DNA of 40,804 bases. Source: a virus. The first letter of the stretch is position 1, and every line of letters begins with the position of its first letter. The DNA is taken from the UHGV virus genome UHGV-0164601, one strand, 5' to 3'. A program made the position numbers and the translations under genes. A model generated the notes under the pieces. The model saw nothing but the letters and a program-made list of their open reading frames with translations, was not told the DNA's origin and did not search any database. This document shows, in pieces, positions 5,026 to 39,515 of the stretch.

Positions 5026-5040
5026 TTACCGTTGAGGTAA
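5026..5040. promoter_or_regulatory. Operator-like palindrome TTACC-GTTGA-GGTAA overlapping the predicted start of the leftward early transcript
   Basis: Perfect 5-bp inverted half-sites with 5-bp spacer; same motif recurs at more than 10 operon starts. Confidence 0.55.
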
Positions 5041-6279: not shown

Positions 6280-6480
6280 ATGGAAATCATTACACGTATT
6301 GATGCCGCAAAGCGCGGACTTAAACGCTACTACACCGGAAAACCATGTAAGCACGGACATGACAGTGAACGCTGGGTTTACAACGGACACTGTGTTGAGT
6401 GCACCATGGAATCAAACCGTCGCATCAGGGCTGAGATTAAGCAGATCATGATTAATTCCTCCCCACAACATTCAAGCTGA
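6280..6480 (+). CDS. Hypothetical small Cys/His-rich protein (possible zinc-binding regulator)
   Basis: 66-aa frame MEIITRIDAAKRGLKRYYTGKPCKHGHDSERWVYNGHCVEC; start chosen at ATG 6280; the alternative ATG at 6211 lacks a Shine-Dalgarno. Confidence 0.35.
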   Translation: MEIITRIDAAKRGLKRYYTGKPCKHGHDSERWVYNGHCVECTMESNRRIRAEIKQIMINSSPQHSS

Positions 6481-23663: not shown

Positions 23664-24241
23664 TGTGTAACCCAGCCATCGCTTTGGTTGCCGTCACAGT
23701 GGCATCCACAGCAGCGTCAATGTACAGCCAGAGCAAGCAGGCAAAATACCAGTCAGCCGTAGCTGATCGGAATGCTGAAATTGCTGAAGCTCAGGCACAG
23801 GATTCAATCAATCGTGGGAATATTGAAGCGGATCAGCGTCGTCGTGAAATGCGTCAACGCTCAGGCACTGCGGCGGCCACTATGGGGGCTACCGGTGCGG
23901 AATTAAGTAGCGGAACAGCTCTTGACGTTTTTGCGGATAATGCTCAGTTCGGCACTCTTGATGCGTTAACGACAGTGAATAATGCTCAGCGTGAGGCATA
24001 TGGGTATCAGGTTCAGGGAATGAATGCTCAGGCACAGGGGGCTGCTGCTCAGTCGGCTGCTAAATCATCGATGACCAGCACTTTGTTAACGGCACCACTA
24101 AAAGCATACGGTGCGTACCAGATGTTTGGTGGGACGTGGAGTCCGTTCTCTAAAGGAAGTACATCTAGTGGTGGGACGCCAATGTTATCTAACTCAGGTT
24201 TTATGAATTCTGACTCCAGATTCAAAATAGGAGGTTACTGA
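23663..24241 (+). CDS. Internal virion protein A-like (T7 gp14 analogue)
   Basis: 192 aa beginning MCNPAIALVAVTVASTAAS with an Ala/Gln-rich body, like the N-terminus of T7 gp14; first of three consecutive core genes. Confidence 0.6.
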   Translation: MCNPAIALVAVTVASTAASMYSQSKQAKYQSAVADRNAEIAEAQAQDSINRGNIEADQRRREMRQRSGTAAATMGATGAELSSGTALDVFADNAQFGTLDALTTVNNAQREAYGYQVQGMNAQAQGAAAQSAAKSSMTSTLLTAPLKAYGAYQMFGGTWSPFSKGSTSSGGTPMLSNSGFMNSDSRFKIGGY

Positions 24242-26988
24242 TGCCTGTTGTTCCTACTACATCCGGACGCCAGGTGCAAAGTCGTGGTGTGCAAACCGGT
24301 GGTTTTCAGACCTTCGATGTTCCTCAAGCAGGTCAGGTGCTGGCGAATGTCGCAGATCAGTATGCGGTGGCATATGGTGAAGCTAGGCAGAAAGCGAATG
24401 TTGCTATGGCCCAGGAGGCGTTACTGCAATTTAACCAATTTGCAGATGACCAGATTAACAACCCTGAAAATGGGCTGATTTCTAAACAGGGTAAAAACGC
24501 TCTTGGTCAGAGTGACGCTGTTATGAAAAATATGCAGGAAAGGGCTCAGGCATTATTAGGCTCAATTCCTGAAAGTGAGGAAAGGAATAAATTATCCTTT
24601 CAACTCCAGCAGTCTATGCAGTCTTATTACAATCAGGCACGTCGATATGAAGTTGGGCAGTTTCAGCAATTCCAAGATCAAACGTATTTGTCAGGAAATG
24701 CATTGGCTGTCACTCAGTCTGCGGGGCTATATAGCGATAACCAAGCATTTGTCGATTTAGCCAAGCAGCGATTTGAATCTATTGATCAATACGCTGATGC
24801 GCATGGGCTTCCTGATGAGTGGCGTGTTCAGCAGAAAACTCAGCTCAAGGAACAAATGGGGCAGCAAGCATGGATAGGAAATATCGCTCAAAAATACAAC
24901 GAGTTTCTTCAGGTTAATGGAGAGCCAGGGGATCTTGATGGTGTGAGTCGTGCAATATCACATGGTAATTCATTGGATGCTCGTGGTTTACGTAATAATA
25001 ACCCTGGCAATATTGAAGCGAGCAAATCTAACCCGTGGGAAGGTCAGATCGGTAGCGATGGACGTTTTGCAACGTTTGCTACCCCTGAGCATGGAATCCG
25101 CGCGTTGGGTAAAAATATGTTGTCTTACCAGCGTCAAGGCTATGACACCGTTAGCGAGATTGTTAATCGCTATGCTCCGGCTAGTGATGGTAATAATACT
25201 GATGCTTATATTAGGGCATTGTGTAGTGAGCTTGGTGTTGGGGAGAATGATCAGCTTGATATCTCTAACCCAAAGACACTAGCTGCTTTATGTGCTGGGA
25301 TTATTAAACACGAAAATGGCAGTATGCCTTATAGCACCGAACAGCTTGAAACTGGTATCTCGGCAGCCCTTGGTCTAACTAACCTTGATTCACCTAAGCG
25401 TTATACGGGCAATGCGGCATTTGACGCTATGAGCCCTCAAATGCAAATACAGGCATTGAGGCAGGCTAATGAGCTGAGAAATCAGTACCGCCAGCAGTAT
25501 GCGGACCAGCTTAGCACCGTAGTTAAAGATGCATATTCAGCCCTTGATGAAGGATTGAAACCTGAGAAGTTACCTTCTGAGGACGATTTTATCCGGGCCA
25601 ATGGTCCGCGCATTGGCGCTATGAAGTGGAAGGATATGCAGGCGCAGATACAATATGGAGGTGTCATTGGTGCCGCTAAAGACCTCACTCCAGAAGGACG
25701 ACAAGACATTCTTGAACGTTTACGTCCACAGGATCCAAACGCTCTTGGATTTGCAGCTAACCAGCAACGCTGGGAGAAAATGCAGGCCAAATTTAAAGAG
25801 ATGGATAGGGAGTGGGAGATTCAGCAGGGAAGAAACAGGTTCGTGTCTTCAATGCAAAATAACTTCCCGCTGGACCCTAACGACAAAAACAATCAGGCAG
25901 CGGTAGACCGTTATTTCGCGCAGGATATCGCGCCTTCGTTTTCCATATCTGATCCGCAGAGCATCAATACACTGGTCACCGTCACAACTAAAAGCGGCAT
26001 GATACCAACTCAGGTTAAAACAATGCTTAACAGTGGAGCAACATCAAGAGATCCTGCGCTGGTTGTCCCGATGGCAAAATTCTACGGTCAGTTATTCGAT
26101 AATAATCCGGCGGCAGCGGCAACACTTGATAAAAGTACGATGGCATTTTACGGCAAGGTTTACGATTATTCCCGCGCTGGCGTGCCGGAGGATAAGGCTG
26201 TTGATATGGCTTACAGCCAGGTGTTCCAACAGGATGACCGAATGAAACAGATGCTTTCCACTGCCATGCGAGACAAAAAATATGTCGCGGCGAGGGCAAC
26301 TGCTGCACAAAATAACGCCAGCAGTCTGACTTCCTTTGGTTCGTGGTCTCCGGATATTACCGATCCAGGAAAATCAAATGCGGCCTATCAGCGAGATTAC
26401 CAGACAATTTACGATGCTAACTTTGTACAGACAGGTGGCGATGCAGAACAGGCTGAGAAAATGACCAATGCCATGATCAGAACCACCTGGGGAGTTTCTA
26501 CAGTTAATGGCAAAGCAGAGGTTATGAAGTATGCACCTGAGGCATTGTACGGAGTAAATAATGGTGCTGGTAACTGGATACAGGGGCAGTGGGAGCAGGA
26601 AAAACGCGAGCTTAAATCAAAATCCTTTGGCGGTCCTCGCAGTGATACGGACTTAATACTTGTTTCTGATGGCCTTACGGCAAGGGATAGGAGTTATGCT
26701 GTTATGGTTTTACAGCCTGACGCAAACGGAGCGATAGAACCGAGAAATTATATTGGAGAAAATGGTCTCCCTGTTCGTTTCAAGCCGGATCAGCTGACAT
26801 CTCCAATGTACAGGCAAACCATTCAGTTCCAGCAACAGCGTGTTGATGAGGCTAGAGTGCGGAGAGAAGGCAATCCGCTGCCGCAGTTCAGCAATAAAGA
26901 TGGATATACTCCTCCAGATCTGACCAAACCATTCGGTTATGGTTCAGCCAATTACCTTCCGAGCAATATATACGCAGGGGGCAAATAA
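24241..26988 (+). CDS. Internal virion (core/ejection) protein B-like, 915 aa
   Basis: Second large core gene, translationally coupled; contains a conserved-looking central module NNPGNIEASKSNPWEGQIGSDGRFATFATPEHGIRALGKNML of unknown function. Confidence 0.5.
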   Translation: MPVVPTTSGRQVQSRGVQTGGFQTFDVPQAGQVLANVADQYAVAYGEARQKANVAMAQEALLQFNQFADDQINNPENGLISKQGKNALGQSDAVMKNMQERAQALLGSIPESEERNKLSFQLQQSMQSYYNQARRYEVGQFQQFQDQTYLSGNALAVTQSAGLYSDNQAFVDLAKQRFESIDQYADAHGLPDEWRVQQKTQLKEQMGQQAWIGNIAQKYNEFLQVNGEPGDLDGVSRAISHGNSLDARGLRNNNPGNIEASKSNPWEGQIGSDGRFATFATPEHGIRALGKNMLSYQRQGYDTVSEIVNRYAPASDGNNTDAYIRALCSELGVGENDQLDISNPKTLAALCAGIIKHENGSMPYSTEQLETGISAALGLTNLDSPKRYTGNAAFDAMSPQMQIQALRQANELRNQYRQQYADQLSTVVKDAYSALDEGLKPEKLPSEDDFIRANGPRIGAMKWKDMQAQIQYGGVIGAAKDLTPEGRQDILERLRPQDPNALGFAANQQRWEKMQAKFKEMDREWEIQQGRNRFVSSMQNNFPLDPNDKNNQAAVDRYFAQDIAPSFSISDPQSINTLVTVTTKSGMIPTQVKTMLNSGATSRDPALVVPMAKFYGQLFDNNPAAAATLDKSTMAFYGKVYDYSRAGVPEDKAVDMAYSQVFQQDDRMKQMLSTAMRDKKYVAARATAAQNNASSLTSFGSWSPDITDPGKSNAAYQRDYQTIYDANFVQTGGDAEQAEKMTNAMIRTTWGVSTVNGKAEVMKYAPEALYGVNNGAGNWIQGQWEQEKRELKSKSFGGPRSDTDLILVSDGLTARDRSYAVMVLQPDANGAIEPRNYIGENGLPVRFKPDQLTSPMYRQTIQFQQQRVDEARVRREGNPLPQFSNKDGYTPPDLTKPFGYGSANYLPSNIYAGGK

Positions 26989-29900
26989 TGCCGATATATG
27001 AACAGGATCCTAAAGAGTTGCTTGGCGAGGATATTCAGCAAATAGCAGCACCTGATGACAGTAATTTCTATATGGAAACACCTTCTTTGCTTTCTGCTGT
27101 GAACCCATTTACCAGTGATCAACGCGTTCAAAGGTCTAGACAAGCAGCATTTCGTATAGATAACACGCTGGGTAGCTTTATTGCCAGTGCTCCTTTCAGT
27201 CAGTTTGACAGGGTTGAAGGATATAACCCATTTGATAACGATGCAGCAGATATTAAAGGCTATGAAGATTTTGCAGATTCGTTTATCAACTCCGGTTCGC
27301 ATGAAGAAACAATGGCAATTAAACATCGAATCGATAAGCAAAGAACAGATAGAGAATATCTATCTGAAATGGGTGGTGCTGGTACTATTTCAAGCTTAGC
27401 AATGGGAATGATAGACCCGGTTAATGTGGCTGCAATGTTCATCCCTGTAGGGGCGGTAGCGCGTGGAGGAAGTATTGCTGAGACGGCAGGGCGTTTTGCC
27501 CTGGCGAATGCTGCTGGTGGGGGAGTATCAGAAGCCGCATTACAGGCCACTCAGGAAGCTCGCTCACCGATGGAGAGCGTATCGAACGTTGTTGTTGATG
27601 CTCTCGTTGGTGGGATCCTTGGTGCTGGTGCACAGCTACTTGCTGGACCTAGCGCGCGCGAGGCAGTGGTTAACTCAGTAGGTAATCATTTGCGAGGTAT
27701 GGATTCTCCTCAAAGCATTGGTGCAGCTCAGGTTTTCAATACCACACTCGATCAGGAACAGCTCGCTGGACTTGGACTTGCTAACAAAACGTTGAGTGTC
27801 ACTCCTGCTGGCCGCTTGGCGCAATCACCATCTCTTGTCTCCCGTCAGATTAACCAGCAGCTTGCCGAAAATAACTATTTCTTCGCCAAAAATGATGAGG
27901 GGTTGGCTACGTTTACGGCAGTCGAGACTAAGATTAAGCAATACGACGCCATGCTTTATAAGCAGATGGAAGCTACTCGTGATGCTTACCAGCAGTACAG
28001 CAAATCTGTCAGCGCCCGCGGCGTGAAGAGGATGAACTTTATTGATTTCAATGAAGCTGTTGGCATGGCTATGCGCCGTGGTGATCAGAGTGATATTCCT
28101 GAGGTTTCACAAGCAGCCGCCAGAATCCGCCCCATTTTTGAGACCACAAAAGCCCGTATGCAGGAATTGGGGATCCTTCCTGAGGATATCGATGTCGTGA
28201 CGGCGAAGAGTTATCTTCCCCGCATTTATAAGTTCGATAAGATACTTTCCGACCGCACTGAATTCAGAGGGCGAATTGCCAACTGGATACAAGGGATTAG
28301 TGCCAAAGGTGCTGACAAAGCAGGTCAGCGAATTGAAAAGATAAATTCATTGCTAAAAACTGCAGAGGAATCAGCACCGCGCGCTGATGCTCTCGCTAGT
28401 GAAATCGCTGAAGCGGAGAAATGGTCTGGTAAAAAAATTCTACTCATGGAAGAACTGGATAAACGAAATAAGCTTATATCTCAGGAGACTGACACACAGG
28501 CGCGTCTTACAAGAATAGAAAAAGAGTTGGCCGAGACTTCATCAGAAAAACTTCAGGCAAGAATGATGAAAGAAAGCTCTGACCTTAAAACACGCCTTGA
28601 TGATATAGCGCAGGCAAAGAGTGAGCTTCCTGTCTATCAGCGCCATATGGAGTTGCTGGATAATCCACGGAAATATCGTTCTGAGCTTCGCCGACTGCAA
28701 AAACGGGCAAATTCAACCACAAGGCTGAATGCAAGCCGCGAGCGAGCACTGAAGCAGATGGAGCCTCTATCCCGAGAGGAAGCAGAGGACGCTGCTGACG
28801 AGATCGTGAATAAAATAATAGGCGCACCTTCCGGGCTTGTACCAGCCGATATTATCCCAGAGAGACTCGTTGGTCGGGCTGGTTTCACTAAAAGCAGAAC
28901 GCTGCTTATTCCTGATGAGCGTATAGAAGATTTTCTTGAATCAGATGTTAACTACATCATGGAAAGTTATCTCCGGCAGGTGGCACCAGAAATTGAGCTG
29001 ACTGCGCAGTTTGGCCGTAAAGATATGGGGGAGCAAATCCGTCAGGTTAGTGAGGAATATACCCGGCTAATAAAAGAGGCTAAAACACCTAAACGACGTG
29101 CAGTTCTTGAGAAGCAACGGGAGGCTGATATTAGGGATATTACGGCTATGCGTGATCGACTGCTTGGTACTTACGGTGCACCTCAAGATCCACGCAGTTT
29201 CTTTGTTCGTGCCGGGCGAGTTGCTAGGAATATTAACTTCCTCCGTTTGCTTGGTGGAATGACTGTCTCCGCTGCAACTGATCTGATGCGACCGATGATG
29301 CAGCATGGCCTGAGAAAATCTCTCGGACCAATGGTAAGCATGCTTAAAAATATGGACTCAGTGAAAATTGCAACCAGGGATTTGCGAGAAATGGCAGTTG
29401 GGCTTGATTATGTCCTGTCTACGCGTACAAAGGCTATAGCGGATCTTACTGACCCCTATAGCCGGAGAAGCGCCGCTGAGCGAGGTCTGAACTGGATGAC
29501 GCAGAAATTCGGTAACTGGACGCTGATGAATCAGTGGAACAGCGCACTTAAATCATGGTCTGGGATGATAGTGCAGTCGAGGATACTTGACGCGGCTCGC
29601 CAAGTTTCTGCTGGTGGCACGCTCTCCAAAAGTGAAATGCGGAAGATGGCACAGGTCGGCATCAATGAAGATGTTCTGCGCCGAATCGGGGAGCAATTCG
29701 GGAAGCACGGAGAGGATATGGACGGGCTGTTAACCGGGCATAGTCATCTGTGGGATGACCGTTTCGCTAGAGAGATTTTCCAGTCTGCAGTGCTGAAAGA
29801 TGTAGACTCAGTGATTGTAACGCCTGGCGTAGGTGATACACCGCTGTTTTTTAGTAAAGAAGGCTGGAAGATGATCACGCAGTTCAAAACGTTTATCTTC

Positions 29901-30377
29901 GCACAGCATAACAGGGTGCTGGTATCTGGTATCCAGCAGGGCGATGCTGCATTCTATCTTGGTGCGCTTGGCACGATTGCGCTTGGCTCAATGGTCTATA
30001 TGATGAAACAGAAGTTAAGCGGTCGCGATATCGACTACAGCTGGAATAACCTTGTGAAAGAGGGGATCGACCGGGGCGGAATGCTTGGCTGGCTCTCTGA
30101 GCCGCTGAATACCGTTGAGAACATAAGCGGCGGTAGGTTTGGTCTTGGCGCGATGTTTGGTGCGCCTCCGGTATCAAGGTTTCAGAGTCGTAATGCTATT
30201 GGTGCTTTACTTGGTCCTACCTTTGATCTTGGCGGTGATGCCGCGACGGTTGCAAATGGTGTACTTAACGGAGAATTTGACAGCCAGCAAACCCACGCTG
30301 TCCGTAAAATGCTACCTTTTCAGAATCTGTGGGCGATATCACCATTACTAAATAAAGTTGAAGAGCAGATGAAATAG
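26988..30377 (+). CDS. Internal virion (core/ejection) protein D-like, 1129 aa
   Basis: Largest ORF of the structural module, immediately after the 915-aa core gene, as T7 gp16 follows gp15. Confidence 0.5.
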   Translation: MPIYEQDPKELLGEDIQQIAAPDDSNFYMETPSLLSAVNPFTSDQRVQRSRQAAFRIDNTLGSFIASAPFSQFDRVEGYNPFDNDAADIKGYEDFADSFINSGSHEETMAIKHRIDKQRTDREYLSEMGGAGTISSLAMGMIDPVNVAAMFIPVGAVARGGSIAETAGRFALANAAGGGVSEAALQATQEARSPMESVSNVVVDALVGGILGAGAQLLAGPSAREAVVNSVGNHLRGMDSPQSIGAAQVFNTTLDQEQLAGLGLANKTLSVTPAGRLAQSPSLVSRQINQQLAENNYFFAKNDEGLATFTAVETKIKQYDAMLYKQMEATRDAYQQYSKSVSARGVKRMNFIDFNEAVGMAMRRGDQSDIPEVSQAAARIRPIFETTKARMQELGILPEDIDVVTAKSYLPRIYKFDKILSDRTEFRGRIANWIQGISAKGADKAGQRIEKINSLLKTAEESAPRADALASEIAEAEKWSGKKILLMEELDKRNKLISQETDTQARLTRIEKELAETSSEKLQARMMKESSDLKTRLDDIAQAKSELPVYQRHMELLDNPRKYRSELRRLQKRANSTTRLNASRERALKQMEPLSREEAEDAADEIVNKIIGAPSGLVPADIIPERLVGRAGFTKSRTLLIPDERIEDFLESDVNYIMESYLRQVAPEIELTAQFGRKDMGEQIRQVSEEYTRLIKEAKTPKRRAVLEKQREADIRDITAMRDRLLGTYGAPQDPRSFFVRAGRVARNINFLRLLGGMTVSAATDLMRPMMQHGLRKSLGPMVSMLKNMDSVKIATRDLREMAVGLDYVLSTRTKAIADLTDPYSRRSAAERGLNWMTQKFGNWTLMNQWNSALKSWSGMIVQSRILDAARQVSAGGTLSKSEMRKMAQVGINEDVLRRIGEQFGKHGEDMDGLLTGHSHLWDDRFAREIFQSAVLKDVDSVIVTPGVGDTPLFFSKEGWKMITQFKTFIFAQHNRVLVSGIQQGDAAFYLGALGTIALGSMVYMMKQKLSGRDIDYSWNNLVKEGIDRGGMLGWLSEPLNTVENISGGRFGLGAMFGAPPVSRFQSRNAIGALLGPTFDLGGDAATVANGVLNGEFDSQQTHAVRKMLPFQNLWAISPLLNKVEEQMK

Positions 30378-30378
30378 G

Positions 30379-31230
30379 ATGAAAAAAATAAATTTGTTTT
30401 TTGGCATAGTGCTTTCAATAGTCTCTGTAAATCCTACAGCTGCCAGTTCATTGCAATGCAATAAGGATAACTTTGATGCATGCAAAACGTGCGAACAATT
30501 ATCAAAGGCTATCGACTTAAAAGAACCTAATCGTGGCGATTACTATAGAGGGGCTTTATGGAATGGGCTTTACGCCTCTTATGTAATTAATTGCCCTGTG
30601 GTTGCAGAGAAGTTACTGAGCCATGGTGCTATACCATCATATGGCGGATATATGGGGTCTATGGGGGCGGTTCTGACAGGAAAATGGCCTCATAACAATG
30701 AATCAATAAATCTTTCATGGGCAGATTTGCTTATAAAACATGGATTTGATGTTAATAGGCATACGGGGAATTATAAATCAGCTACTGAAGTATGGGCTAT
30801 AGATAAAAAACAGATTGAATATAAGTCAGTTTTTGACAAGTTAATTCAATCCAGCGAAGTAAAACCACTCGATCCTTCAAGAAATTTAGAATGGTGTGCG
30901 TCTGAAGGGTATCGCTCAGTTGTCGTTTATTCCCTTAACTCATGTATAGAAAATGCTATAAAACGTTTGGATGACGGTGTTTCTTCAGCGTCTGATATTT
31001 CATCAGCAGCCGTAAATTCCTGTACTAGCGATGTAGAAAATTTCAATAAGCATTTGGCATGCAAAGCAGCTGTTAAAGAAAACTCTGATAAAGAGAGAAG
31101 CAACGTTTACCAGTTATTAACCAGTGATAGTCAAATGAATAAAAATGTTATTGATATGCTGAAGGAAAGAAATATTGAAACGGTTCTTGAATTTAGAGCT
31201 GAAAATCGATCAGCGAAAACTGCACAGTGA
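30379..31230 (+). CDS. Secreted protein of unknown function (moron), possible ankyrin-like repeats
   Basis: Signal-peptide-like N-terminus MKKINLFFGIVLSIVSVNPTAASS; visibly AT-rich codon usage; LL.HGA / LLIKHGFDVNRHT ankyrin-like segments; own terminator. Confidence 0.55.
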   Translation: MKKINLFFGIVLSIVSVNPTAASSLQCNKDNFDACKTCEQLSKAIDLKEPNRGDYYRGALWNGLYASYVINCPVVAEKLLSHGAIPSYGGYMGSMGAVLTGKWPHNNESINLSWADLLIKHGFDVNRHTGNYKSATEVWAIDKKQIEYKSVFDKLIQSSEVKPLDPSRNLEWCASEGYRSVVVYSLNSCIENAIKRLDDGVSSASDISSAAVNSCTSDVENFNKHLACKAAVKENSDKERSNVYQLLTSDSQMNKNVIDMLKERNIETVLEFRAENRSAKTAQ

Positions 31231-31300: not shown

Positions 31301-31323
31301 CAAAAAAGCCCGCGCCGCGGGCT
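31301..31323 (-). terminator. Rho-independent terminator of the minus-strand two-gene cassette
   Basis: GCCCGC-GCC-GCGGGC hairpin containing the stop codon, followed on the minus strand by TTTTTTGT. Confidence 0.5.
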
Positions 31324-31762
31324 ATTCTTCTTCATCATAAAAAAGCGGATTGTCGTTTCCATCTGATGAAAGGAAAGGTATGTGTTCTCTTGAAAATCCA
31401 ACAACGACAATTTCATTATCATTTTTTGCATAATGAATGCATTCATTAGAATGCATTCCGCCAGGGTTGAAATTTAAGTTAATGGTATAATTCTTAAATG
31501 TGTTTGGATACCATGTTGGCCCACAATGATAATGCCAATAATTCTCTTGCTCATAATTGTCTGAGCCGGGAATTTTATCATGGTTATCATCAACCCACGA
31601 TGGCTTGTTTTTTCCAACAAGCGCCCTTCCATTGGCAACATCTTCTAAAAACCTTTGTATGATTTTTATTTCATCGTCAGTAAGGAAAGGTCCGTCTACA
31701 GCGAAAGGGGTGTTGCTTTCCCCATTTAGAAAACTATTAGATATTCTAATGTTAAACTTCAA
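31322..31762 (-). CDS. Hypothetical protein (146 aa), distal gene of a two-gene moron cassette
   Basis: TTG start at 31762 with AGGAG 6 nt upstream; AT-rich; conserved-looking YWHYHCGP segment; acidic C-terminus FYDEEE; no family recognised. Confidence 0.5.
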   Translation of the reverse strand: MKFNIRISNSFLNGESNTPFAVDGPFLTDDEIKIIQRFLEDVANGRALVGKNKPSWVDDNHDKIPGSDNYEQENYWHYHCGPTWYPNTFKNYTINLNFNPGGMHSNECIHYAKNDNEIVVVGFSREHIPFLSSDGNDNPLFYDEEE

Positions 31763-31962: not shown

Positions 31963-31977
31963 TTACCTTTAAGGTAA
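31963..31977. promoter_or_regulatory. Operator-like palindrome TTACC-TTTAA-GGTAA between the predicted -10 and the ribosome-binding site of the cassette
   Basis: Perfect copy immediately upstream of the AGGAGG Shine-Dalgarno. Confidence 0.5.
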
Positions 31978-32050: not shown

Positions 32051-32737
32051 TCAGAAGAACCCTGCCTTGTCGTTGATGTACTCCGCGTGCGTCTGGATAT
32101 CACGCAGGCATTTGCTCACACCGACGATGTAGCAGAACATGGTGGTCAGTTCCGCCGCCGCGCCCGATACATCATGCCCGTCGTCCTGCAACTGATTCAG
32201 CAGATTCATCAGCAATGAGTTCTCCGTCAGGCCGAGAACACCCGACGGCGAATGAATCAGACTGCGGTAGCCTGGCTTCAGTGGGGCACTGTAGGTTTTG
32301 TTCTCTATCTTCATCGCCTGCATTACTGCTGACGCCGTGGCGTTGGCTACCTGGTCGGCAACCATCTTTATGCGCTCTTCCTGCGGGAGCGAGTTTTTAA
32401 TGTAGCTTCCGGTGCGGCGGATCTGAGGAAGAACCTCACCTGTAACCCATTTGCGAAAGCGGTAGGGGATAGTGCCTGGTGTCACTGCGTCGCGGCAGCG
32501 GAGGATCAGTGTGTAGAGGCCTGACTCGTTGATAATATTGGTTTCGCCTTGACGGCCTAAGTTAAATTTAGCCCTTTCATCATCATCAAGAGATTTTATT
32601 GACATAGTGGGGTTTGTCAGTTGAAGAGCTTTAATAACGTCTTTGGCAACAAACCAAGGATTTCCATCAATAACAATGGCTCGAATGGTTGCTTCTGATT
32701 CAAAATGAAAAACAGATGGGGTTACGTTAGCAGTCAT
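32051..32737 (-). CDS. Phage antirepressor (BRO-N domain with KilA-C/Ant-type C-terminal domain)
   Basis: N-terminal FHFESEATIRAIVIDGNPWFVAKDVIKALQL...ESGLYTLILRCRDA is a typical BRO-N motif; start at ATG 32737 (AAGGTG upstream) rather than the ORF-track start 32890, which would run through the leader hairpin. Confidence 0.75.
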   Translation of the reverse strand: MTANVTPSVFHFESEATIRAIVIDGNPWFVAKDVIKALQLTNPTMSIKSLDDDERAKFNLGRQGETNIINESGLYTLILRCRDAVTPGTIPYRFRKWVTGEVLPQIRRTGSYIKNSLPQEERIKMVADQVANATASAVMQAMKIENKTYSAPLKPGYRSLIHSPSGVLGLTENSLLMNLLNQLQDDGHDVSGAAAELTTMFCYIVGVSKCLRDIQTHAEYINDKAGFF

Positions 32738-32890
32738 AGTGATCACCTTTGTAGTTAGGTTAATCACCACTACCGACGCCAATCGGTTGGTGGTGAACTG
32801 TGCAGGGTTGGCGTAACCGGCTACAAAGGACCCGGCGCACCTTTCGGTGCCCCCACACAGCCCACCATAGAATAGGTGCGCTTTACACAT

Positions 32891-32909
32891 AAAAAAACCG
32901 CTTATGCGG
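32891..32909 (-). terminator. Weak terminator/attenuator-like hairpin in the antirepressor leader
   Basis: CCGC-TTAT-GCGG hairpin followed on the minus strand by TTTTTTT. Confidence 0.3.
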
Positions 32910-32924
32910 CATATGTGCCTCTGT

Positions 32925-32976
32925 AGTAATCCGGGACGCCAATCCCGGCACTGGATTTTGCCAGTGCCCGATTACT
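32925..32976. other. Structured element (nested inverted repeats) upstream of the antirepressor; candidate leader RNA or small RNA
   Basis: AGTAATCCGGG...CCCGATTACT outer stem enclosing hairpins CCGGGA-CGCCAA-TCCCGG and CACTGG-ATTTTG-CCAGTG. Confidence 0.3.
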
Positions 32977-33003
32977 ATGGCACAAGAGGAGTGCAATGTA
33001 AAT

Positions 33004-33018: not shown

Positions 33019-33096
33019 TGATAAGCGCGAAGAAACATTAAAATCAACCGTATTTGGTTGATTGCGTTTAACGCTTGATCACCTGAAAGCAAGATA

Positions 33097-33111
33097 TTAC
33101 CTTTAAGGTAA
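33097..33111. promoter_or_regulatory. Operator-like palindrome TTACC-TTTAA-GGTAA
   Basis: Perfect copy 21 bp upstream of ATG 33132; identical sequence to the site at 31963-31977. Confidence 0.5.
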
Positions 33112-33131
33112 TGTTATTGTGAGGAAAAGCA

Positions 33132-33860
33132 ATGGAAGTTTTCTGGATAGTTGTTGGTGTGGTTGCGGTGATTATTTACGTTATCAACCAGAACAAGACT
33201 AAGATCTCTGATCGTACGGTCGTTAATCATAACAAAACGATAAAGACCGAAGATGGGGAGATAACGATTAATCGTACACAGGTGATAGAACACACCTCTA
33301 CTCAGTTTCAAAAAACTGGAGGTAATGCGCCTAATATTTCCGCACCTCCTGCTTATGATAGTGCGGTAATCCAGACATATTATAAACAGCAGGAGTTAGC
33401 AAAAGAGAGGCAACTGATTCAGCCAAAGCCGTTTACAGCTGAGATTCCACCTGGAGTGTCAACGCGTCCGGCATATCATGGAAGATTCCCTGGTGATGAC
33501 ATATCGTCTCAGTCATCTAAAAAAGCACCTCAGGCAATATCAGAGCCAGCAAGAATACCTTCTGTATCGCTGCCAAAAGAAGAATCAGCTAACAGAGTTT
33601 CAAGTGGTAGCAAGCAGTGCTTGCGATGCAGAATAAACCTTCCATATGAAAAATTCAGGAAATCGTCAAAAAATCCAGATGGATTGACTAAATGGTGTGC
33701 AAGGTGTCTCGATGGCCCAAAGAATACACGCCATATGAAGTGGTGCCCAATTTGTAATGTCCGCAGAAAACGAACCAGCTTTTACCCTAATAATCAAAAT
33801 GCGGACGGCTTAATGGCATGGTGCAAAACGTGCTGGGATGAGCACAAAGCGAAACGATAG
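33132..33860 (+). CDS. Membrane-anchored protein with duplicated CxxC-x22-WCxxC zinc-ribbon (rubredoxin-like) modules
   Basis: N-terminal hydrophobic helix FWIVVGVVAVIIYVI, Pro/Ser/Gln-rich linker, then CLRC...DGLTKWCARC and CPIC...DGLMAWCKTC repeats; GAGGA before ATG 33132. Confidence 0.6.
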   Translation: MEVFWIVVGVVAVIIYVINQNKTKISDRTVVNHNKTIKTEDGEITINRTQVIEHTSTQFQKTGGNAPNISAPPAYDSAVIQTYYKQQELAKERQLIQPKPFTAEIPPGVSTRPAYHGRFPGDDISSQSSKKAPQAISEPARIPSVSLPKEESANRVSSGSKQCLRCRINLPYEKFRKSSKNPDGLTKWCARCLDGPKNTRHMKWCPICNVRRKRTSFYPNNQNADGLMAWCKTCWDEHKAKR

Positions 33861-33884
33861 GCCGCTCTTGCGGCCTTTAAATTT
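33860..33884 (+). terminator. Rho-independent terminator after the zinc-ribbon gene
   Basis: GGCCGC-TCTT-GCGGCC hairpin followed by TTTAAATTT. Confidence 0.55.
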
Positions 33885-34140
33885 ACCGGGTTTGTTTTCG
33901 TAATTGTTCGGCACAATAGTCGAGATGTGTTTGCAGATCCCGCATAGACATCTGTGAGCTGGTGACGTAGTTAATCAGTGCAGTCAGTTCGGCAAGTGGG
34001 CCATCGACATTAAATCCATCCTTATCGAGATCCCGGAGTAATTTCATCAAGTGCGATCCCTCCACCAGTGACCTGACGCCTCCCGGCGTGTGAATCCTTT
34101 CGGTAAATCCGTCTTCCAGTGGATAGTGATACTGCTGCAT
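33883..34140 (-). CDS. Small antirepressor-like protein (85 aa), stand-alone paralog of the antirepressor C-terminal domain, with a LexA box in its promoter
   Basis: TPGGVRSLVEGSHLMKLLRDLDKDGFNVDGPLAELTALINYV...MRDLQTHLDY aligns with the C-terminus of the 32051-32737 protein (SPSGVLGLTENSLLMNLLNQLQDDGHDVSGAAAELTTMFCYI...LRDIQTHAEY); start at ATG 34140 with GGAG upstream. Confidence 0.55.
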   Translation of the reverse strand: MQQYHYPLEDGFTERIHTPGGVRSLVEGSHLMKLLRDLDKDGFNVDGPLAELTALINYVTSSQMSMRDLQTHLDYCAEQLRKQTR

Positions 34141-34159
34141 CTTATCTTCTCCATGCAAT

Positions 34160-34179
34160 AACTGTATATTTATACAGTA
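34160..34179. promoter_or_regulatory. LexA (SOS) box
   Basis: AACTGTATATTTATACAGTA: CTGT-N8-ACAG with an AT-only spacer, 18 of 20 matches to the E. coli consensus TACTGTATATATATACAGTA; 20 bp upstream of ATG 34140. Confidence 0.65.
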
Positions 34180-34216
34180 GCAAATAATTTGTTTGCTATC
34201 CAGCACGTTTTGCAAA

Positions 34217-34231
34217 TTACCCGAAAGGTAA
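34217..34231. promoter_or_regulatory. Operator-like palindrome TTACC-CGAAA-GGTAA
   Basis: Perfect copy between the SOS-box gene and the tailspike gene; 32 bp upstream of ATGTGGTT (34264-34271). Confidence 0.5.
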
Positions 34232-34335
34232 TATCTATTCATATTCACAGTATTTCTATCCATATGTGGTTTTTCAGGTAATAGAATAACCGGATATGCG
34301 GCGCAACGGGTGCTGCGACTATCTGGAGATTTAAC

Positions 34336-37311
34336 ATGACGGTCTCAACCGAAGTTGACCACAACGAATACACAGGTAACGGCGTTACGACATCATTTCC
34401 GTATACCTTTAGGGTTTTCAAGGAATCTGATCTGGCAGTACAGGTGGTTGACCTTGACGAAAATATCGCTGTGCTGGCTCTTGATACTGATTACACTGTC
34501 ACTGGGGCTGGTGGATATAATGGCGGTAATGTAATTCTGTCGAAGGCGTTAGCTAACGGTTATCAGATTTCTATATCACGAGAGCTACCGGTTACGCAGG
34601 AAACTGATCTGCGAAATCAGGGAAAGTTTTTCGCTGAGGTGCATGAAGACGCGTTAGATAAGCTGACGATGCTGATACAGCAAGTCCGCAGTTGGTTTAG
34701 CCTGGCGCTGCGCAAACCATCATTTGTGGCAAACTATTACGATGCTTTGAATAATTACATCCGCAATTTGCGCGATCCTTCCAAGCCTCAAGATGCAGCT
34801 ACAAAGAATTATGTTGATAATATTGTTAATGTGAATATTAACAGGACATTACGGGTTCCAGATAATTTTATTGAACCACTTCCTCCAGTTCATTTACTGG
34901 AAGAAACTGTCATTGGTATCGTCAATGGTAAACCTATAGGTGTACCTGTGCCTTCTGGCAGTGCCGCAGATGTTCTTCTGCAATTATCTAGCGCAGGAGA
35001 AGGAAAAGGTGATGCATTAATTGGTGTAAGGCAGCCATTTGCCGGGGCTGTAACTATAACTCAGCATGAAAACAATGCTCTTTTCTTAAATGTAAAACAA
35101 TTCGGAGCAATTGGGGATGGGAAATATCATCCATTATCTGAGAGGTTTTCTTCAATTTCTGAAGCAAAATCCTTATATCCTTTTGTTGACTCATTATCTC
35201 AGTCAATAGACTGGGCCGCGTGGCAAGCTGCCATTAACACAGGAAAGGTTATTTATGGTACTGATAATGCGTATGTAATAACGGATACGTTAACACCTGT
35301 TTCTGGTGGTGGGATAATTGGTCTTGGTGTGGGCAAATGGGTCTCTGGATATACTGCAACATTTGCTCCTGATATTACCACAGGGACCACATTCCTGATG
35401 TACGGGGTAGGAAATAAAAAATATACTGTAGATTGTGTTTCTAATATGGATGTTAGTGGTGGTGTGGTTTCTAATCCATCTTCCGAAGACCCGTATACAA
35501 CAACGGCACCTGCGTCATCATATGATTTATTGGATTTTACTAACGGTGATGCTAATGGGACTACAAGAGCCACGCTTAAACCATTCTCTGCCGCAATATT
35601 GATGCCTGAGACAGGATGTGTTCGCCTTGAGAACTTTCGTGTTGTTCCATATTTCAATGGGCTGGATGGTTATAAAGACATTGCAAATACCGGTCTTGGC
35701 GATGAGTGGGATGTAGGTATTTGGTCACGTGCGTCTTTTGGCAATGAATACCGCAATTTGCAGGTGGTTGGATACTGGCGCAAGACGGCACTTTTAAAAA
35801 CGAACATTCCTGTATCTGGCACGCTGGCCGCTCAGGGCGAGGATGAAAACTATTATCACTGTAGATTCCAGGGATTCAAGGGTATTTCGATCCGCGCCCA
35901 TGATGTATTCCGAATTACAGCGGTAACGTCCAGCACTATCGAAATCCCATGGTCAGCAAGCCACACCTTCGAAACGTCCGGGGTTTTAAGATCTGGAGGC
36001 AGGAATTTCACTTATTCAGGATTATCCGTATCCGGTGATAAGTTAGTATTTACTGGAGTGTCTAACGCTTCTGAGGCAACAGTAGGTTCTACTATACGGC
36101 GAAATGACATAGATAACTTTGGTATGGCGGGAACGCAATTTTTCGATTGCTACATTACCAGCCTGTATCACCACACACATCTGCTTGCCACATCGCAATA
36201 CCTGTCTCAGCCATTCAGCCGGCCATCAGAGTGTATGGAGGTTTCAGGGGAACCAGTTCGCGGTGTACAGGTACATGCGGGAACCATTCAGGGATGGGAT
36301 GATGTTCTTATTCATCTGCATGACTGTGGAAATATGAACTTTTACAGTACATATTTCGAAAGCCAGCAAGCATATGTAACTATAAATGGTGGTAATGCTA
36401 TTGGTTATGGAGCACGTATGATAGCTTCCCGGCAATCAACAAGCTCATTACCATATGCAGCAGGGAATACTCGAGTGCTTAGAATGGTCGGGTGCTCTGA
36501 AGGCAATGGCGTTGACTGGGGTCCTGTATTTAACAACTATACAGGAGGAAGATATAATTCTGGAGACGGTGTATTTAACCCCCGCGATGCATTTATAGAC
36601 CATAAATCTCTTCCTGAGCAGTCAGGAGGTGAGTCAAGACTCGTATCACAAAAAGGAAATGCCAGAGTAGTATGTGGTGTTGGTAAAACTGTACTGCTTG
36701 GACCAACGTCAGGAGATTGTAATTTACAGAGCAATACTGGAAGTTTAAATATTAGAAGTGGGATAAGAGTAAGAATCGGTCACGCTGATGGAACAGACTG
36801 GTGGTTGGCAGATGCTAATAAAATAGCTCCTGTTGATGATAATGTTAAAGCTATTGGACAGCCATCAAACAGATGCTCTGTTATCTATGCAGGAACCGGG
36901 TCAATCAATACGTCAGATGAAACTCTTAAAACAAGATATGATATTCTTAATGCAGAGCGTAATGCCGCTATTGAAATAAAGTCAGTCATCTATAAATTTA
37001 AATTTAATGACTCAATTAATCACAAAGGAATTGAGTCGTCCAGGTATCATTTTGGCGTTGGCGCTCAAACCGTAGGGGATATTCTTAGAAAGCATGGTTT
37101 AAACCCTGAGCAATATGCTTTTTGGTGTTACGATGAATGGCCTGACGTATGGGATGAAGAGGTGATAACTGAAGAGAGCACAGATCCTGATACAGGTGAG
37201 AAAATTTATTCTCAATATAAAACAGGAGATATGATTCTTGTAAAAAAAGCAGGAGGACGCTACGGAATTCGTTATGACGAATTAGCCATGTTTATATTAA
37301 TGTCAATGTAA
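34336..37311 (+). CDS. Tailspike / tail fibre with central beta-helix (depolymerase-like) domain and C-terminal intramolecular chaperone (peptidase S74-like) domain
   Basis: N-terminal virion-attachment-like region (NEYTGNGVTTSFPYTF); pectate-lyase-type motif LNVKQFGAIGDGKYHP; C-terminal SDETLKTRYDILNAERNAAIEIKSV... resembling self-cleaving chaperone domains; GGAG before ATG 34336. Confidence 0.7.
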   Translation: MTVSTEVDHNEYTGNGVTTSFPYTFRVFKESDLAVQVVDLDENIAVLALDTDYTVTGAGGYNGGNVILSKALANGYQISISRELPVTQETDLRNQGKFFAEVHEDALDKLTMLIQQVRSWFSLALRKPSFVANYYDALNNYIRNLRDPSKPQDAATKNYVDNIVNVNINRTLRVPDNFIEPLPPVHLLEETVIGIVNGKPIGVPVPSGSAADVLLQLSSAGEGKGDALIGVRQPFAGAVTITQHENNALFLNVKQFGAIGDGKYHPLSERFSSISEAKSLYPFVDSLSQSIDWAAWQAAINTGKVIYGTDNAYVITDTLTPVSGGGIIGLGVGKWVSGYTATFAPDITTGTTFLMYGVGNKKYTVDCVSNMDVSGGVVSNPSSEDPYTTTAPASSYDLLDFTNGDANGTTRATLKPFSAAILMPETGCVRLENFRVVPYFNGLDGYKDIANTGLGDEWDVGIWSRASFGNEYRNLQVVGYWRKTALLKTNIPVSGTLAAQGEDENYYHCRFQGFKGISIRAHDVFRITAVTSSTIEIPWSASHTFETSGVLRSGGRNFTYSGLSVSGDKLVFTGVSNASEATVGSTIRRNDIDNFGMAGTQFFDCYITSLYHHTHLLATSQYLSQPFSRPSECMEVSGEPVRGVQVHAGTIQGWDDVLIHLHDCGNMNFYSTYFESQQAYVTINGGNAIGYGARMIASRQSTSSLPYAAGNTRVLRMVGCSEGNGVDWGPVFNNYTGGRYNSGDGVFNPRDAFIDHKSLPEQSGGESRLVSQKGNARVVCGVGKTVLLGPTSGDCNLQSNTGSLNIRSGIRVRIGHADGTDWWLADANKIAPVDDNVKAIGQPSNRCSVIYAGTGSINTSDETLKTRYDILNAERNAAIEIKSVIYKFKFNDSINHKGIESSRYHFGVGAQTVGDILRKHGLNPEQYAFWCYDEWPDVWDEEVITEESTDPDTGEKIYSQYKTGDMILVKKAGGRYGIRYDELAMFILMSM

Positions 37312-37355: not shown

Positions 37356-37717
37356 TTATAATAATGCTCTTAACTTCTTAAATGATATTTATATGCACTT
37401 AGATTATTAAATCTATATTATGCCTGTTATTTATGTGTTCTGTTATATGTTTTGCAGGCACTGTTGGCAGCATTAAAGGAAATTGTATTTATGGCGAAAT
37501 AGCTGGTATCGTGTTTTTATTGTGCGTAAAAATAACAGACTGCATATATTATTGTATAAAGTTTTGGAAATGAAAACACTCAAACTTACCGCTGTGGATA
37601 TGTTTTGACCATCGCGAATTGGATTGGTAATATTGGGTAACAAAAAACCATAAATGGTTTATCATGCGTAATGCTTTACTGTTCAGGAGGTAGTTATGCA
37701 TATAAACGGTGGAAAAC

Positions 37718-38122
37718 ATGTCAGCTCAACTAACCAGTGAAACTTTAAATCAGTGGCTTAGCATGAGTTCTTTGGCGGCAGTGATAGCAGGAGTTCCTCC
37801 TGAGGTTGCTTTGGGGTCTTTGGCTGGGGCGGTGATTTTTGTTACCTCTGCGGTAGAGTATCCCATTCGTCGTCGCGTGCTCTTGTCGATGCTTAGCTTT
37901 CTCTGCGGACTTCTATTCTACAAACCAGCAGCATCAATTCTTATCGGCATAGCCAGCCTGATCCCTACAATCACACAGGATTCTTTCGAGAAAGGGATTG
38001 TTTTCTCTGCCGGTGCATTTGTGTCAGCAATCGTCGCTGTGCGAATTGGGATCTGGCTCTATCACCGTTCCGATAATCCACGCGAGTTAATTCCGGGGAG
38101 AAAAGACGATGGTAACTCATGA
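37718..38122 (+). CDS. Holin-like membrane protein (putative)
   Basis: About 135 aa with 3-4 predicted transmembrane helices, first gene of the lysis cassette; possible dual start (GTG 37709, ATG 37718). Confidence 0.5.
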   Translation: MSAQLTSETLNQWLSMSSLAAVIAGVPPEVALGSLAGAVIFVTSAVEYPIRRRVLLSMLSFLCGLLFYKPAASILIGIASLIPTITQDSFEKGIVFSAGAFVSAIVAVRIGIWLYHRSDNPRELIPGRKDDGNS

Positions 38123-38417
38123 GCTTTTTTTGCTTATCACCAATGCGGTTATTTGCGCCGGTATAGCAGTTCGAGTTGCCACATTTCGGAGAAACGGTTC
38201 TCAACACAGGCGATGGGGTGGGTGGCTTGCTTATTTCCTGATTGTTGCTGCGGCCAGCATTCCAGTTCGTGTCGCTTATGCAATCTGGTTACGCACGCCA
38301 ATGGTTGTGGATTTATCTGAGGTCATTATCAACGCTGTCATGCTTGCTGCAGTCATTAAAACGCGCGGTAACGTAGTTCAGATTTTCAAAATAACGAGGT
38401 CTAAACATGGAGATTAA
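38109..38417 (+). CDS. Second small membrane lysis protein (holin/antiholin-like, putative)
   Basis: 102 aa, three hydrophobic helices, ATG 38109 overlapping the upstream gene; directly precedes the endolysin. Confidence 0.45.
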
Positions 38418-39036
38418 ACAATTCCAGCGAGCTGCTGGTATCAGCGAGGAACTGGCCGCTCGCTGGTTCTCGCATATAACTTCTGCGATGAAAGAGTTTG
38501 GTATCAGCAAACCAGAAGATCAGGCAATGTTTATTGCTCAGGTCGGGCATGAGTCTGGAGGCTTCACCCGGTTGCAGGAAAATTTCAACTACAGCGTAAC
38601 CGGATTGGCTAACTTCGTTCGGGCTGGGCGTCTCACTCAGGGGCAGGCTAATGCACTTGGTCGCCGTGCTGGTGAACCACCATTGCCACTCGAGCGCCAG
38701 CGCGCGATCGCAAATCTGGTGTACAGCAAACGCATGGGGAACAATGCCCCTGGTGATGGCTGGAATTACCGTGGGCGCGGGCTTATCCAGATTACCGGTT
38801 TGAATAACTATCGTGACTGTGGAAACGGTCTGAAAGTTGACCTGCTGGAGAATCCTGAACTGTTGGCGCAGGACGAATACGCGGCTCGTAGCGCGGCGTG
38901 GTTCTTCTCCAGCAAAGGTTGCATGAAGTATACCGGAGATATTGCACGTGTAACTCTGCTTATCAATGGTGGCCGGAACGGCATTGATGACCGGCGCGCG
39001 CGATACATCACTGCCAGTAAGGTGCTGGCGGTATGA
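38407..39036 (+). CDS. Endolysin, glycoside hydrolase family 19 (chitinase-like lysozyme)
   Basis: GH19 signatures [12 protein letters not shown] and [16 protein letters not shown]; position between the membrane lysis proteins and the spanins. Confidence 0.8.
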
Positions 39037-39515
39037 TCTGGGCATTCGCAAAAGCATACTGGAAACAGTTGGTTATCATGGCGATGCTTGCTGTTCTGGT
39101 CATATCAGGAGTTGTAGCCTGGAATGCACACGGCAGTCGTCAGTACGATGCCGGGTATGCGCAGGCGAAGGAAGACCGCAAAGCTGAAGATGAGATAGTT
39201 CGTCAGCACTACGAACAGGAGAAATCGATCAATGAACGTGAAGCGCAGCAGAGGATCGACCAGGCGCGCAATGATTCTCTTGATGCTGCCGCTCGCGCTG
39301 GCCGGTTGCAGCAACAACTCTTTGCCATCCGTGAGCAGCTCAGGCAGTATAACGCCATTGTCGGCGCTGGGACGTCAGCCGCAGACACCGGAGTTTTGCT
39401 TGCCGACGTGCTCAGCAAATCTCTCGAGAGAAACAGACAACTGGCAGAGTATGCTGACCGGGCAGCCGAAGCCGGAAGAGTCTGCGAAAAACAATACGAC
39501 ACCCTGACCAGATAG
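39033..39515 (+). CDS. Rz-like inner-membrane spanin (i-spanin)
   Basis: N-terminal transmembrane helix ([18 protein letters not shown]) then Gln/Arg/Glu-rich coiled coil; ATGA-coupled to the endolysin stop. Confidence 0.65.
39271..39507 (+). CDS. Rz1-like outer-membrane lipoprotein spanin (o-spanin), fully embedded in the +1 frame of the Rz-like gene
   Basis: [13 protein letters not shown] lipobox signal followed by a Pro/Ser-rich short mature peptide, entirely inside 39033-39515. Confidence 0.5.
   Translation: MILLMLPLALAGCSNNSLPSVSSSGSITPLSALGRQPQTPEFCLPTCSANLSRETDNWQSMLTGQPKPEESAKNNTTP

Follow-up and report, generated by a model that had tools for sequence, protein, structure and literature searches.

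What might a temperate phage gain from a small membrane-anchored protein with two zinc modules, a protein that some of its close relatives do without? The question is raised by a 242-codon gene that starts at position 33132 of the virus genome UHGV-0164601, a stretch of 40,804 nucleotides (the window) that is a phiV10/epsilon15-like temperate podovirus prophage of E. coli and whose closest DNA match is phage TL-2011b (93%). The gene is real and functional and is under purifying selection. Its product joins an N-terminal transmembrane helix and a long linker to a C-terminal zinc pair, which from profile and structural likeness is most aptly seen as a strongly basic (+14) and catalytically dead relative of the zinc repeats with which His-Me nucleases grip DNA. 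We favor the reading, with a probability of about 0.4, that the product serves in prophage exclusion or defense and acts at the inner membrane on DNA entering the cell. Neither the domain type nor the category (immunity-region cargo of temperate phages) is new; the architecture and the family are uncharacterized in the databases and literature searched.

Protein architecture and membrane topology

The product matches PHROG 6762 (function unknown) over its full length (E 6e-149). Its sole hydrophobic segment is at residues 3–19 (mean Kyte-Doolittle hydropathy 2.7 over 17 amino acids; all other windows ≤0.13), and AlphaFold places a helix at residues 3–20 with a predicted local distance difference test (pLDDT) score of about 90. 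The juxtamembrane segment is predicted with low confidence to form a beta-hairpin (strands 26–39 and 42–55, pLDDT 46–58). The linker that follows is rich in Pro (13%), Ser (13%), Ala (11%) and Gln (9%), has pLDDT values <50 and differs in length among aligned homologs. The last 84 residues hold two modules with the common pattern C-x2-C...F...DGL-x2-W-C-x2-C: CLRC...DGLTKWCARC at residues 163–192 in module 1 and CPIC...DGLMAWCKTC at residues 205–234 in module 2. A gapless alignment of the two scores 68, compared to -13 ± 9 (maximum 21) in 1000 shuffles. Residues 160–242 are predicted with pLDDT >90, each module as four short strands and a helix, and the net charges are +8 (module 1) and +6 (module 2). 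A first-pass annotation, made from the sequence alone, had described this anatomy correctly (a membrane anchor, a Pro/Ser/Gln-rich linker and duplicated CxxC...DGLxxWCxxC modules); the transmembrane and structure predictions that it proposed return one N-terminal helix and a confident C-terminal zinc domain.

Of 79 short proteins with two modules, 64 carry a hydrophobic helix near the N-terminus, preceded by an N-tail with a median length of 2 residues. Lys or Arg follow the helix in 63 of these 64 (mean of 3.5 in the next 15 residues vs. 0.06 in the N-tail), and by the positive-inside rule the zinc pair is therefore predicted to be cytoplasmic, with the N-terminus outside (N-out/C-in). The short N-tail, single transmembrane helix, C-terminal charges, flexible linker and globular head are together those of a bitopic N-out/C-in tether, with the topology assigned by that rule. 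A cytoplasmic location suits zinc-bound cysteines, since cysteines of this type are not expected to stay reduced in the periplasm. In the homolog of Yersinia phage YeP5 (L009, 1984–2634), a (TK)9 run stands directly after the membrane helix.

Relatives and likely chemistry of the zinc pair

The modules had been called rubredoxin-like, which is only loosely right: by structure and by profile they come closest to Cys4 zinc repeats of His-Me (HNH) nucleases, namely those of Hpy99I (PDB 3fc3), PacI (3m7k; module 1 resembles its N-terminal zinc motif) and viral HNH/endonuclease VII zinc modules. A Foldseek search of the structure against the PDB gave no significant match. The zinc region of a PHROG family labeled ‘endonuclease VII’ matches module 1 (E 9.5e-12), and module 2 has PHROG matches with E 1e-9 to 2e-5; the matches to endonuclease VII and HNH families cover only zinc regions, outside the nuclease cores. 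In BFVD, giant viruses and actinophages provide the matches (E down to 2e-7), with proteins of the zinc-finger, HNH-endonuclease and endonuclease VII kinds. Hpy99I is built from a beta-barrel and two ‘beta4-alpha2’ repeats, in each of which two CxxC motifs hold a structural zinc; the major groove is read by the first repeat and the minor groove by the second, which is catalytic (PMC2699513). The modules have the fold of a His-Me finger, a zinc-stabilized beta-hairpin and helix with structural Cys4 sites as in Hpy99I, PacI and T4 endonuclease VII.

His-Me nucleases carry a strictly conserved catalytic His and a metal-binding Asn, Asp or His in the beta-beta-alpha region (PMC2699513). No His column exceeds 47% among the 79 family members, a near-invariant Phe (F175/F217) occupies the position of the general base, and no acidic residue is invariant apart from the Asp in each of the two DGL motifs. 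Neither Pfam HNH nor Endonuclease_7 gives a match even at E ≤ 10. The 79 members were chosen by their Cys/Trp pattern, and the invariance of those residues in the set is partly by construction, which is not true of the conservation of K161, F175, G184, K203, R212 and L227 or of the lack of His. With the catalytic His missing, the zinc pair is probably a binder and not a nuclease, and we infer that the modules bind zinc and DNA. Compared to Hpy99I, PacI and endonuclease VII, the family lacks the catalytic His, the metal-binding Asn and the nuclease core; its zinc pair is carried by a membrane anchor with a long disordered tether, and not by a nuclease or beta-barrel domain.

The nearest Pfam family is Stc1 (PF12898), with 21.1 bits (E 4.8e-4) and thus below the gathering score of 24.8 bits; multi-copy bacterial relatives of the module pass this cut-off with 29–61 bits. 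Both have eight conserved Cys, arranged as the two CxxC...CxxC halves of a tandem unit that spans ~84 residues, here the C-terminal unit with C163–C234. Stc1, a LIM-like tandem zinc finger, binds Ago1 (PMC2875855). It differs from the phage family in being a soluble eukaryotic (fission-yeast) Argonaute-binding adaptor, with neither a membrane anchor nor a phage context. Since Stc1 is known as a protein-binding domain, a protein ligand for the zinc pair is also conceivable. PHROG 5558, which bears a Lar-like label, matches only module 2 (profile positions 7–47 of 130, E 3e-9), and there is no Pfam Lar match at E ≤ 10; the family does not group with the Lar-like restriction alleviation proteins. 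Nor does it have the layout of a zinc-binding anti-sigma factor (ZAS), in which an N-terminal HxxxCxxC motif precedes a C-terminal membrane segment: the transmembrane helix is N-terminal, so that the order is reversed, the CxxC...CxxC pattern contains no His, and neither Pfam nor NCBIfam matched such a family. A 65-amino acid (aa) early-region protein of the window (6283–6480, +; phrog_1081) weakly matches the zinc region of phrog_1035 ‘endonuclease VII’, as module 1 does; from this match, the phage may carry a second, soluble, single zinc module.

Conservation, selection and extent of the family

All eight Cys and the residues K161, D183, W188, K203, D225, L227 and W230 are invariant in an alignment of 21 sequences that extends down to 21–30% identity, and the same residues are kept in 31 closer homologs. 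Loss of the cysteine pattern in homologs, or clear homology to a housekeeping family, had been named in the first-pass annotation as grounds for abandoning its proposal; the pattern is conserved, and no housekeeping homolog was found. The ratio of nonsynonymous to synonymous substitution rates (dN/dS) among 54 intact 242-codon E. coli alleles (37 distinct) is 0.26 overall, 0.06 for the zinc pair, 0.27 for the transmembrane helix and juxtamembrane segment, and 0.75 for the linker. The strong constraint on the zinc pair and the near-neutral linker fit a functional head on a passive tether.

Homologs were found in 33 clusters. A profile search of 1.8 billion representatives recovered ~50 full-length relatives (at the 50% clustering level) and detected the zinc module in 1742 proteins (E ≤ 0.001). 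The family is present in Escherichia, Serratia, Yersinia, Edwardsiella, Aeromonas, Acinetobacter, Haemophilus and marine Gammaproteobacteria. Its anchor sequence varies by clade while the zinc pair is constant, and in some members a coiled coil replaces the juxtamembrane hairpin; this suggests that tethering of the pair to the membrane is the conserved theme. For the same reason, the possibility that the helix is a pore-forming effector was down-weighted. Within the enterobacterial clade the helix and juxtamembrane segment are well conserved, and the helix may make a specific membrane contact. Single modules also occur in 3–10 tandem copies in long proteins with superfamily 1 and 2 (SF1/SF2) helicases, HEAT repeats and winged-helix domains.

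Association with immunity genes

In about nine lambdoid loci (L010/L091, L087, L088, L089, L096, L097, L102, L103) the gene lies directly 3' of a cI repressor gene, the position of rexAB. It follows the cI stop codon by 17–55 nt, in the same direction, in L010/L091 (Aeromonas phage phiARM81mr), L088, L096 (Acinetobacter), L102 (Marinobacterium) and L103 (Neptunomonas). In L087 and L089 it is likewise 3' of genes for shorter repressor-like proteins, and in Acinetobacter L097 one small membrane open reading frame (ORF) stands between cI and the gene. The cI repressors upstream of the gene, where tested, all combine HTH_3 and Peptidase_S24. Elsewhere the gene is tail-to-tail with cI (Oceanobacter L099, Pseudoalteromonas L101), directly follows an Arc-like repressor gene that faces a KilA-N antirepressor (Acinetobacter L095), is near antirepressors (Edwardsiella, Haemophilus), or is beside lipoprotein cargo (one siphovirus and the YeP5-like phages). 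The immunity proteins encoded next to it belong to unrelated types (CI-S24, double-HTH repressor, Arc, Bro-N, KilA-N, pRha), and the common factor is therefore more likely to be an expression program than a physical partnership with a given repressor. That the gene repeatedly adjoins cI, Arc and antirepressor genes, a point absent from the first-pass annotation, is the chief clue to its function.

The slot 3' of cI holds lambda rexAB and Pseudomonas RexAB-type defense genes; RexA binds DNA, and RexB is a membrane protein of four helices (PMC12894663). In its lambdoid relatives the gene shares with rexAB the position and direction relative to cI, and its product likewise combines an inner-membrane part with a DNA-binding part, which is putative here. 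It differs in being one polypeptide with a single transmembrane helix and in having no sequence similarity to RexA or RexB (no PADLOC match). The window also departs from the RexAB arrangement, as its repressor gene is at 5160–5744 and the gene studied here is not beside it but in an immI-like region.

Two side observations concern the company of the gene in these loci. A 135-aa lipoprotein gene (L009, 2646–3053; phrog_3716) follows the YeP5 homolog and is possibly another exclusion-type cargo. In Acinetobacter-type lambdoid prophages, the gene is found together with one for a related polytopic membrane protein of ~100 aa (L087, 6567–6878; L097, 1046–1342), which is located 3' of it in one locus and separates it from cI in the other; this protein could be a partner, or cargo in its own right.

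A dispensable cassette in a variable interval

Relative to phiV10, the gene, its upstream region and its terminator-like hairpin form a clean insertion (Table 1). Homology in blastn ends at 33026, between the ant leader and an 85-aa gene, and restarts at 33883; phiV10 has 24 bp in this place (an 856-bp indel). The cassette has a GC content of 43%, compared to 48% for the window. A phiV10 remnant annotated ‘similar to SF0880’ was rejected as a relic of the gene, as it lies in the ant leader and phiV10 holds no trace of the gene. TL-2011b has an intact 242-codon copy, although NC_019445 marks 34153–35241 only as a misc_feature ‘similar to hypothetical protein’; the intact frame rules out a pseudogene. 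A tblastn match to this copy begins at residue 19, for which low-complexity masking of the transmembrane helix is the candidate explanation. The gene is present in 129 of 5426 complete E. coli genomes (2.4%), chromosomal in every case. Both its patchy distribution and its absence from phiV10 support the earlier view that the protein is not a structural or lysis component.

The gene is located in a variable interval between the ejection-protein genes (24241–30377) and the tailspike gene (34336–37311), which in the window also holds two low-GC cargo genes, a Bro-N antirepressor gene and the 85-aa gene, which encodes an antirepressor C-terminal domain. In related prophages (Superficieibacter, Serratia, Providencia and others) the gene is in the same interval but placed elsewhere within it and inverted with respect to the structural genes, and thus it behaves like an autonomous cassette. 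Other cargo in this interval across relatives includes HicAB, YafO, lipoproteins and antirepressors. The predicted promoter of its own, the terminator-like hairpin, the indel relative to phiV10, the deviating GC content and an insulating upstream terminator in relatives are features of a moron. The gene order, read here from the sequence, resembles that around sieA of P22: SieA, too, is a small accessory protein of the inner membrane, and its gene lies in the stretch of a temperate podovirus genome that separates the ejection-protein genes from the antirepressor/tailspike region. The two proteins share no detectable homology, and the window protein, unlike SieA, is predicted to be mostly cytoplasmic and has zinc modules.

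Regulatory sequences

That the gene has its own operator-bearing upstream region and terminator was noticed in the first-pass annotation, and both elements are found here (Table 1). The proposed promoter rests on a geometry conserved in relatives, TTGAAC-17-TACCTT in Serratia and TTGACC-17-TACCTT at six IMG/VR loci; a generic promoter scan did not flag it. The palindrome over its -10 element has 16 matches in the window vs. 1.2 expected. At 10 intergenic sites the core TTACC-N5-GGTAA does not vary, and three of these sites flank the gene encoding a 194-aa double helix-turn-helix (HTH) repressor without a peptidase domain (5160–5744). From this flanking arrangement, the palindromes appear to be operators of the prophage repressor that form a dispersed regulon, resembling the C1 logic of phage P1. 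Sites are at 5026, 5088, 5800, 8131, 8193, 11715, 14923, 31963, 33004, 33097 and 34217, and the palindrome marks the starts of many transcription units across the prophage; even the cargo HicAB of a relative (L002) has one upstream. Such a regulon would show phiV10-like phages wiring cargo genes into a dispersed set of operators. The paper on phage vB_EcoP_ZX5 gives no definition of operators.

In Escherichia, Superficieibacter, Serratia and the six IMG/VR loci, the operator keeps its place over the promoter. Providencia has a different palindrome in the equivalent place, which suggests co-evolution with immunity specificity. Because the operator overlaps the -10 element, the immunity repressor is predicted to repress the gene in a stable lysogen, with expression when the phage infects or is induced. 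In L065–L071, a perfect palindrome (TGTGACATGTCACA) lies just 5' of the -35 element of the gene, about 45–60 bp upstream of the -10 element and after a strong terminator; it is absent from the window. It was rejected as a CRP site because its spacer is 4 nt and not 6, and it could be the site of a second regulator.

Table 1. Features of the cassette and of the encoded protein (positions in the window).
Feature	Position	Strand	Basis or remark
Whole cassette (promoter/operator, gene, terminator)	33027–33882	+	Clean insertion vs. phiV10
Proposed sigma-70 promoter: -35 TTGATC (33075–33080), 17-bp spacer, -10 TACCTT (33098–33103)	33075–33103	+	Sequence reading
Operator-like palindrome of 17 bp, ATTACC-TTTAA-GGTAAT (ATTACCTTTAAGGTAAT)	33096–33112		Overlaps -10 element and transcription start
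Shine-Dalgarno sequence GAGGA, 6 nt 5' of ATG	33121–33125	+	Read directly from sequence
Coding sequence, 242 aa and stop, ATG start	33132–33860	+	PHROG 6762
Transmembrane helix, residues 3–19 (VFWIVVGVVAVIIYVIN)	33138–33188	+	Hydropathy, AlphaFold helix, Lys/Arg placement
Juxtamembrane segment, residues 20–57 (NQNKTK.SDRTV...TIKTEDGEI.I.RTQV)	33189–33302	+	Conserved columns in homolog alignment
Variable disordered Pro/Ser/Ala/Gln linker, residues 58–158	33303–33605	+	Composition, pLDDT, alignments
Zinc module 1, residues 159–200 (C163, C166, C189, C192)	33606–33731	+	Invariant Cys, pLDDT >90
Zinc module 2, residues 201–242 (C205, C208, C231, C234)	33732–33857	+	Invariant Cys, pLDDT >90
Terminator-like GC-rich hairpin directly 3' of stop	33859–33876	+	7-bp stem, weak T-run

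Exclusion or defense, and the alternatives

As an exclusion or defense factor, the product would be a single-pass inner-membrane protein with two residues in the periplasm and the remainder in the cytoplasm, where a flexible tether of ~100 residues would let the basic Cys4 zinc pair patrol the cytoplasmic face of the membrane. The pair would bind foreign DNA, or a protein injected with the DNA, as it emerges, and binding would block or abort the infection and protect the prophage-carrying cell. One polypeptide would then do what the DNA-binding RexA and the membrane protein RexB of lambda do as two, and its gene would travel as an accessory cassette with the immunity genes of temperate phages. 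A more specific version, in which a dead His-Me zinc pair tethered to the membrane is a single-protein immunity module that recognizes foreign DNA at entry and either excludes it or triggers abortive infection, and in which this module has spread among the temperate phages of many Gammaproteobacteria as a companion of repressor genes, is possible but, taken as a whole, somewhat doubtful. The favored reading is compatible with the idea, put forward in the first-pass annotation, of a nucleic-acid or protein sensor at the inner membrane, an idea that gains support from the predicted cytoplasmic orientation, the charge of the zinc pair, its DNA-contacting structural relatives and the adjacency to immunity genes.

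Genes beside prophage repressors have repeatedly proved to be defense or exclusion systems, RexAB being an example, and this family fills the repressor-adjacent slot in many unrelated phages, yet has no assigned function. The design, with its anchor, long tether and zinc pair resembling that of a dead nuclease, is simple and unusual. If the reading is right, a cytoplasm-facing and probably DNA-binding head implies that entering DNA is attacked at a different point. Small as it is, the gene apparently acts alone and is present in about 2% of E. coli genomes, which makes it easy to test; it is a solid and cheaply testable candidate for a new single-gene exclusion mechanism.

Several observations weigh against an exclusion or defense role. 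The protein has no similarity to known anti-phage defense or superinfection-exclusion families: PADLOC matched 0 families, NCBIfam gave nothing meaningful, the match to PHROG 8545 (‘Sie-like’) is non-significant (E 0.99), and RexA and RexB are dissimilar. A literature search found no description of the family and no published function, and no phenotype exists for the gene. Most characterized exclusion proteins block injection from the periplasmic side, which a domain in the cytoplasm cannot do. The nearest Pfam family, Stc1, although sub-threshold, is known as a protein-binding and not a DNA-binding tandem zinc finger. Guilt by position is weak evidence, as immunity regions also gather cargo unrelated to defense. 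Finally, and this is the main difficulty, an operator over the promoter, as in the phiV10-like phages, would fit protection of the lysogen less well than the cI-operon position seen in lambdoid relatives. Two considerations may soften this last objection: with a single operator, repression is possibly partial, and exclusion genes can act early in infection, as imm and sp of T4 do.

The regulation could instead point to a protein that fastens DNA to the membrane and is made when repressor is absent, at infection or induction; the DNA would be the phage genome (for replication or entry, as with p16.7 of phi29) or the host nucleoid (disturbing segregation or division, in the manner of Noc-like bridges). 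p16.7, with an N-terminal anchor and a cytoplasmic DNA-binding domain, organizes replication, and Noc-like proteins bridge membrane and DNA. Such an early tether would account for the conserved position of the operator over the -10 element and for the different palindrome at the equivalent place in Providencia, and it suits a basic zinc pair related to DNA-contacting modules and a predicted cytoplasmic head on a long tether. We nevertheless consider it unlikely, as the gene is dispensable and sporadic (absent from phiV10 and confined to the small fraction of E. coli genomes given above), which is unusual for a replication or entry function, is never found in replication or recombination operons, and is co-transcribed with cI in the lambdoid loci, pointing to lysogenic expression; the comparisons with p16.7 and Noc, moreover, concern general properties and not sequences. 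Much the same judgment, that it is improbable, applies to a LIM/Stc1-like adaptor that captures a host or phage protein at the membrane and so tunes the lysis-lysogeny circuit or a host membrane machine. Here the architecture matches ZipA, which has an N-terminal single-pass anchor (N-out), a Pro/Gln-rich flexible linker and a cytoplasmic FtsZ-binding domain; Stc1, an Ago1-binding protein, is the only Pfam family with a near-threshold match, the zinc module is also fused to HEAT repeats, and the gene constantly adjoins repressor or antirepressor genes. The immunity proteins concerned are, however, unrelated to each other, so that a conserved physical partner among them is unlikely, the structural neighbors with solved complexes bind DNA, and so high a positive charge is better suited to nucleic acid. 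The likeness to ZipA, as to p16.7, is one of general architecture: there is no homology, the head domains differ, and those are host division and phage replication proteins while the window gene is dispensable cargo.

Two further alternatives, like the anti-sigma factor, were rejected, on the evidence of His residues, charge placement and motif order. An active membrane-bound His-Me (HNH-type) nuclease that cuts incoming DNA would explain why the fold resembles those of Hpy99I and PacI and why PHROG and BFVD return families labeled endonuclease VII or HNH endonuclease, but it is very unlikely given the Phe at the base position, the want of a conserved His column, the restriction of the PHROG matches to zinc regions and the silence of the Pfam nuclease profiles. 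It is scarcely credible that the hydrophobic N-terminal segment is the signal peptide of a periplasmic or secreted protein, or of a lysis or virion component: the n-region has no positive charge (it starts ME-), there is no signal-peptidase site, the charge follows the helix in nearly every member, and eight zinc-type Cys would be out of place in the periplasm. The gene also lies outside the lysis cassette (37709–39515) and the virion gene blocks, and related phages lack it. For the exclusion or defense reading, the protein anatomy, its conservation under purifying selection, the structural relatives, the cassette nature of the gene and its genomic associations are observed, and from these we predict the topology, the binding of zinc and DNA, the repressor that binds the operator, the timing of expression and the exclusion phenotype.

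Neighboring genes and RNAs

As noted earlier from the sequence, the gene is divergent from the Bro-N antirepressor gene. A mechanically called ORF of 279 aa (32051–32890, -) is over-extended at its 5' end and runs through a C4 RNA; the antirepressor most likely begins at 32740 and has 229 aa. Its leader (32786–32980, -) contains an Rfam C4 antisense RNA (32786–32872, 79.5 bits), an isrK-like RNA (32891–32967, 76.8 bits) and C4 a1/b1 target sites (32928–32980, 45.1 bits, just below the cut-off). Judged by these matches, the leader is a P1-type immI control in a phiV10-like podovirus.

The 85-aa gene (33883–34140, -) is divergent from the tailspike gene and encodes a stand-alone antirepressor C-terminal domain (41% identity, E 3e-16; phrog_450). 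It is kept beside the tailspike gene in all phiV10-like loci examined, and its product could be a decoy or a regulator. Of the two low-GC cargo genes, one (30379–31230, +; 37% GC) encodes a 283-aa protein with a signal-peptide-like N-terminus (phrog_6118), and the other (31322–31762, -; 36% GC) a 146-aa protein (phrog_5954), with the operator-like site at 31963 upstream of it.

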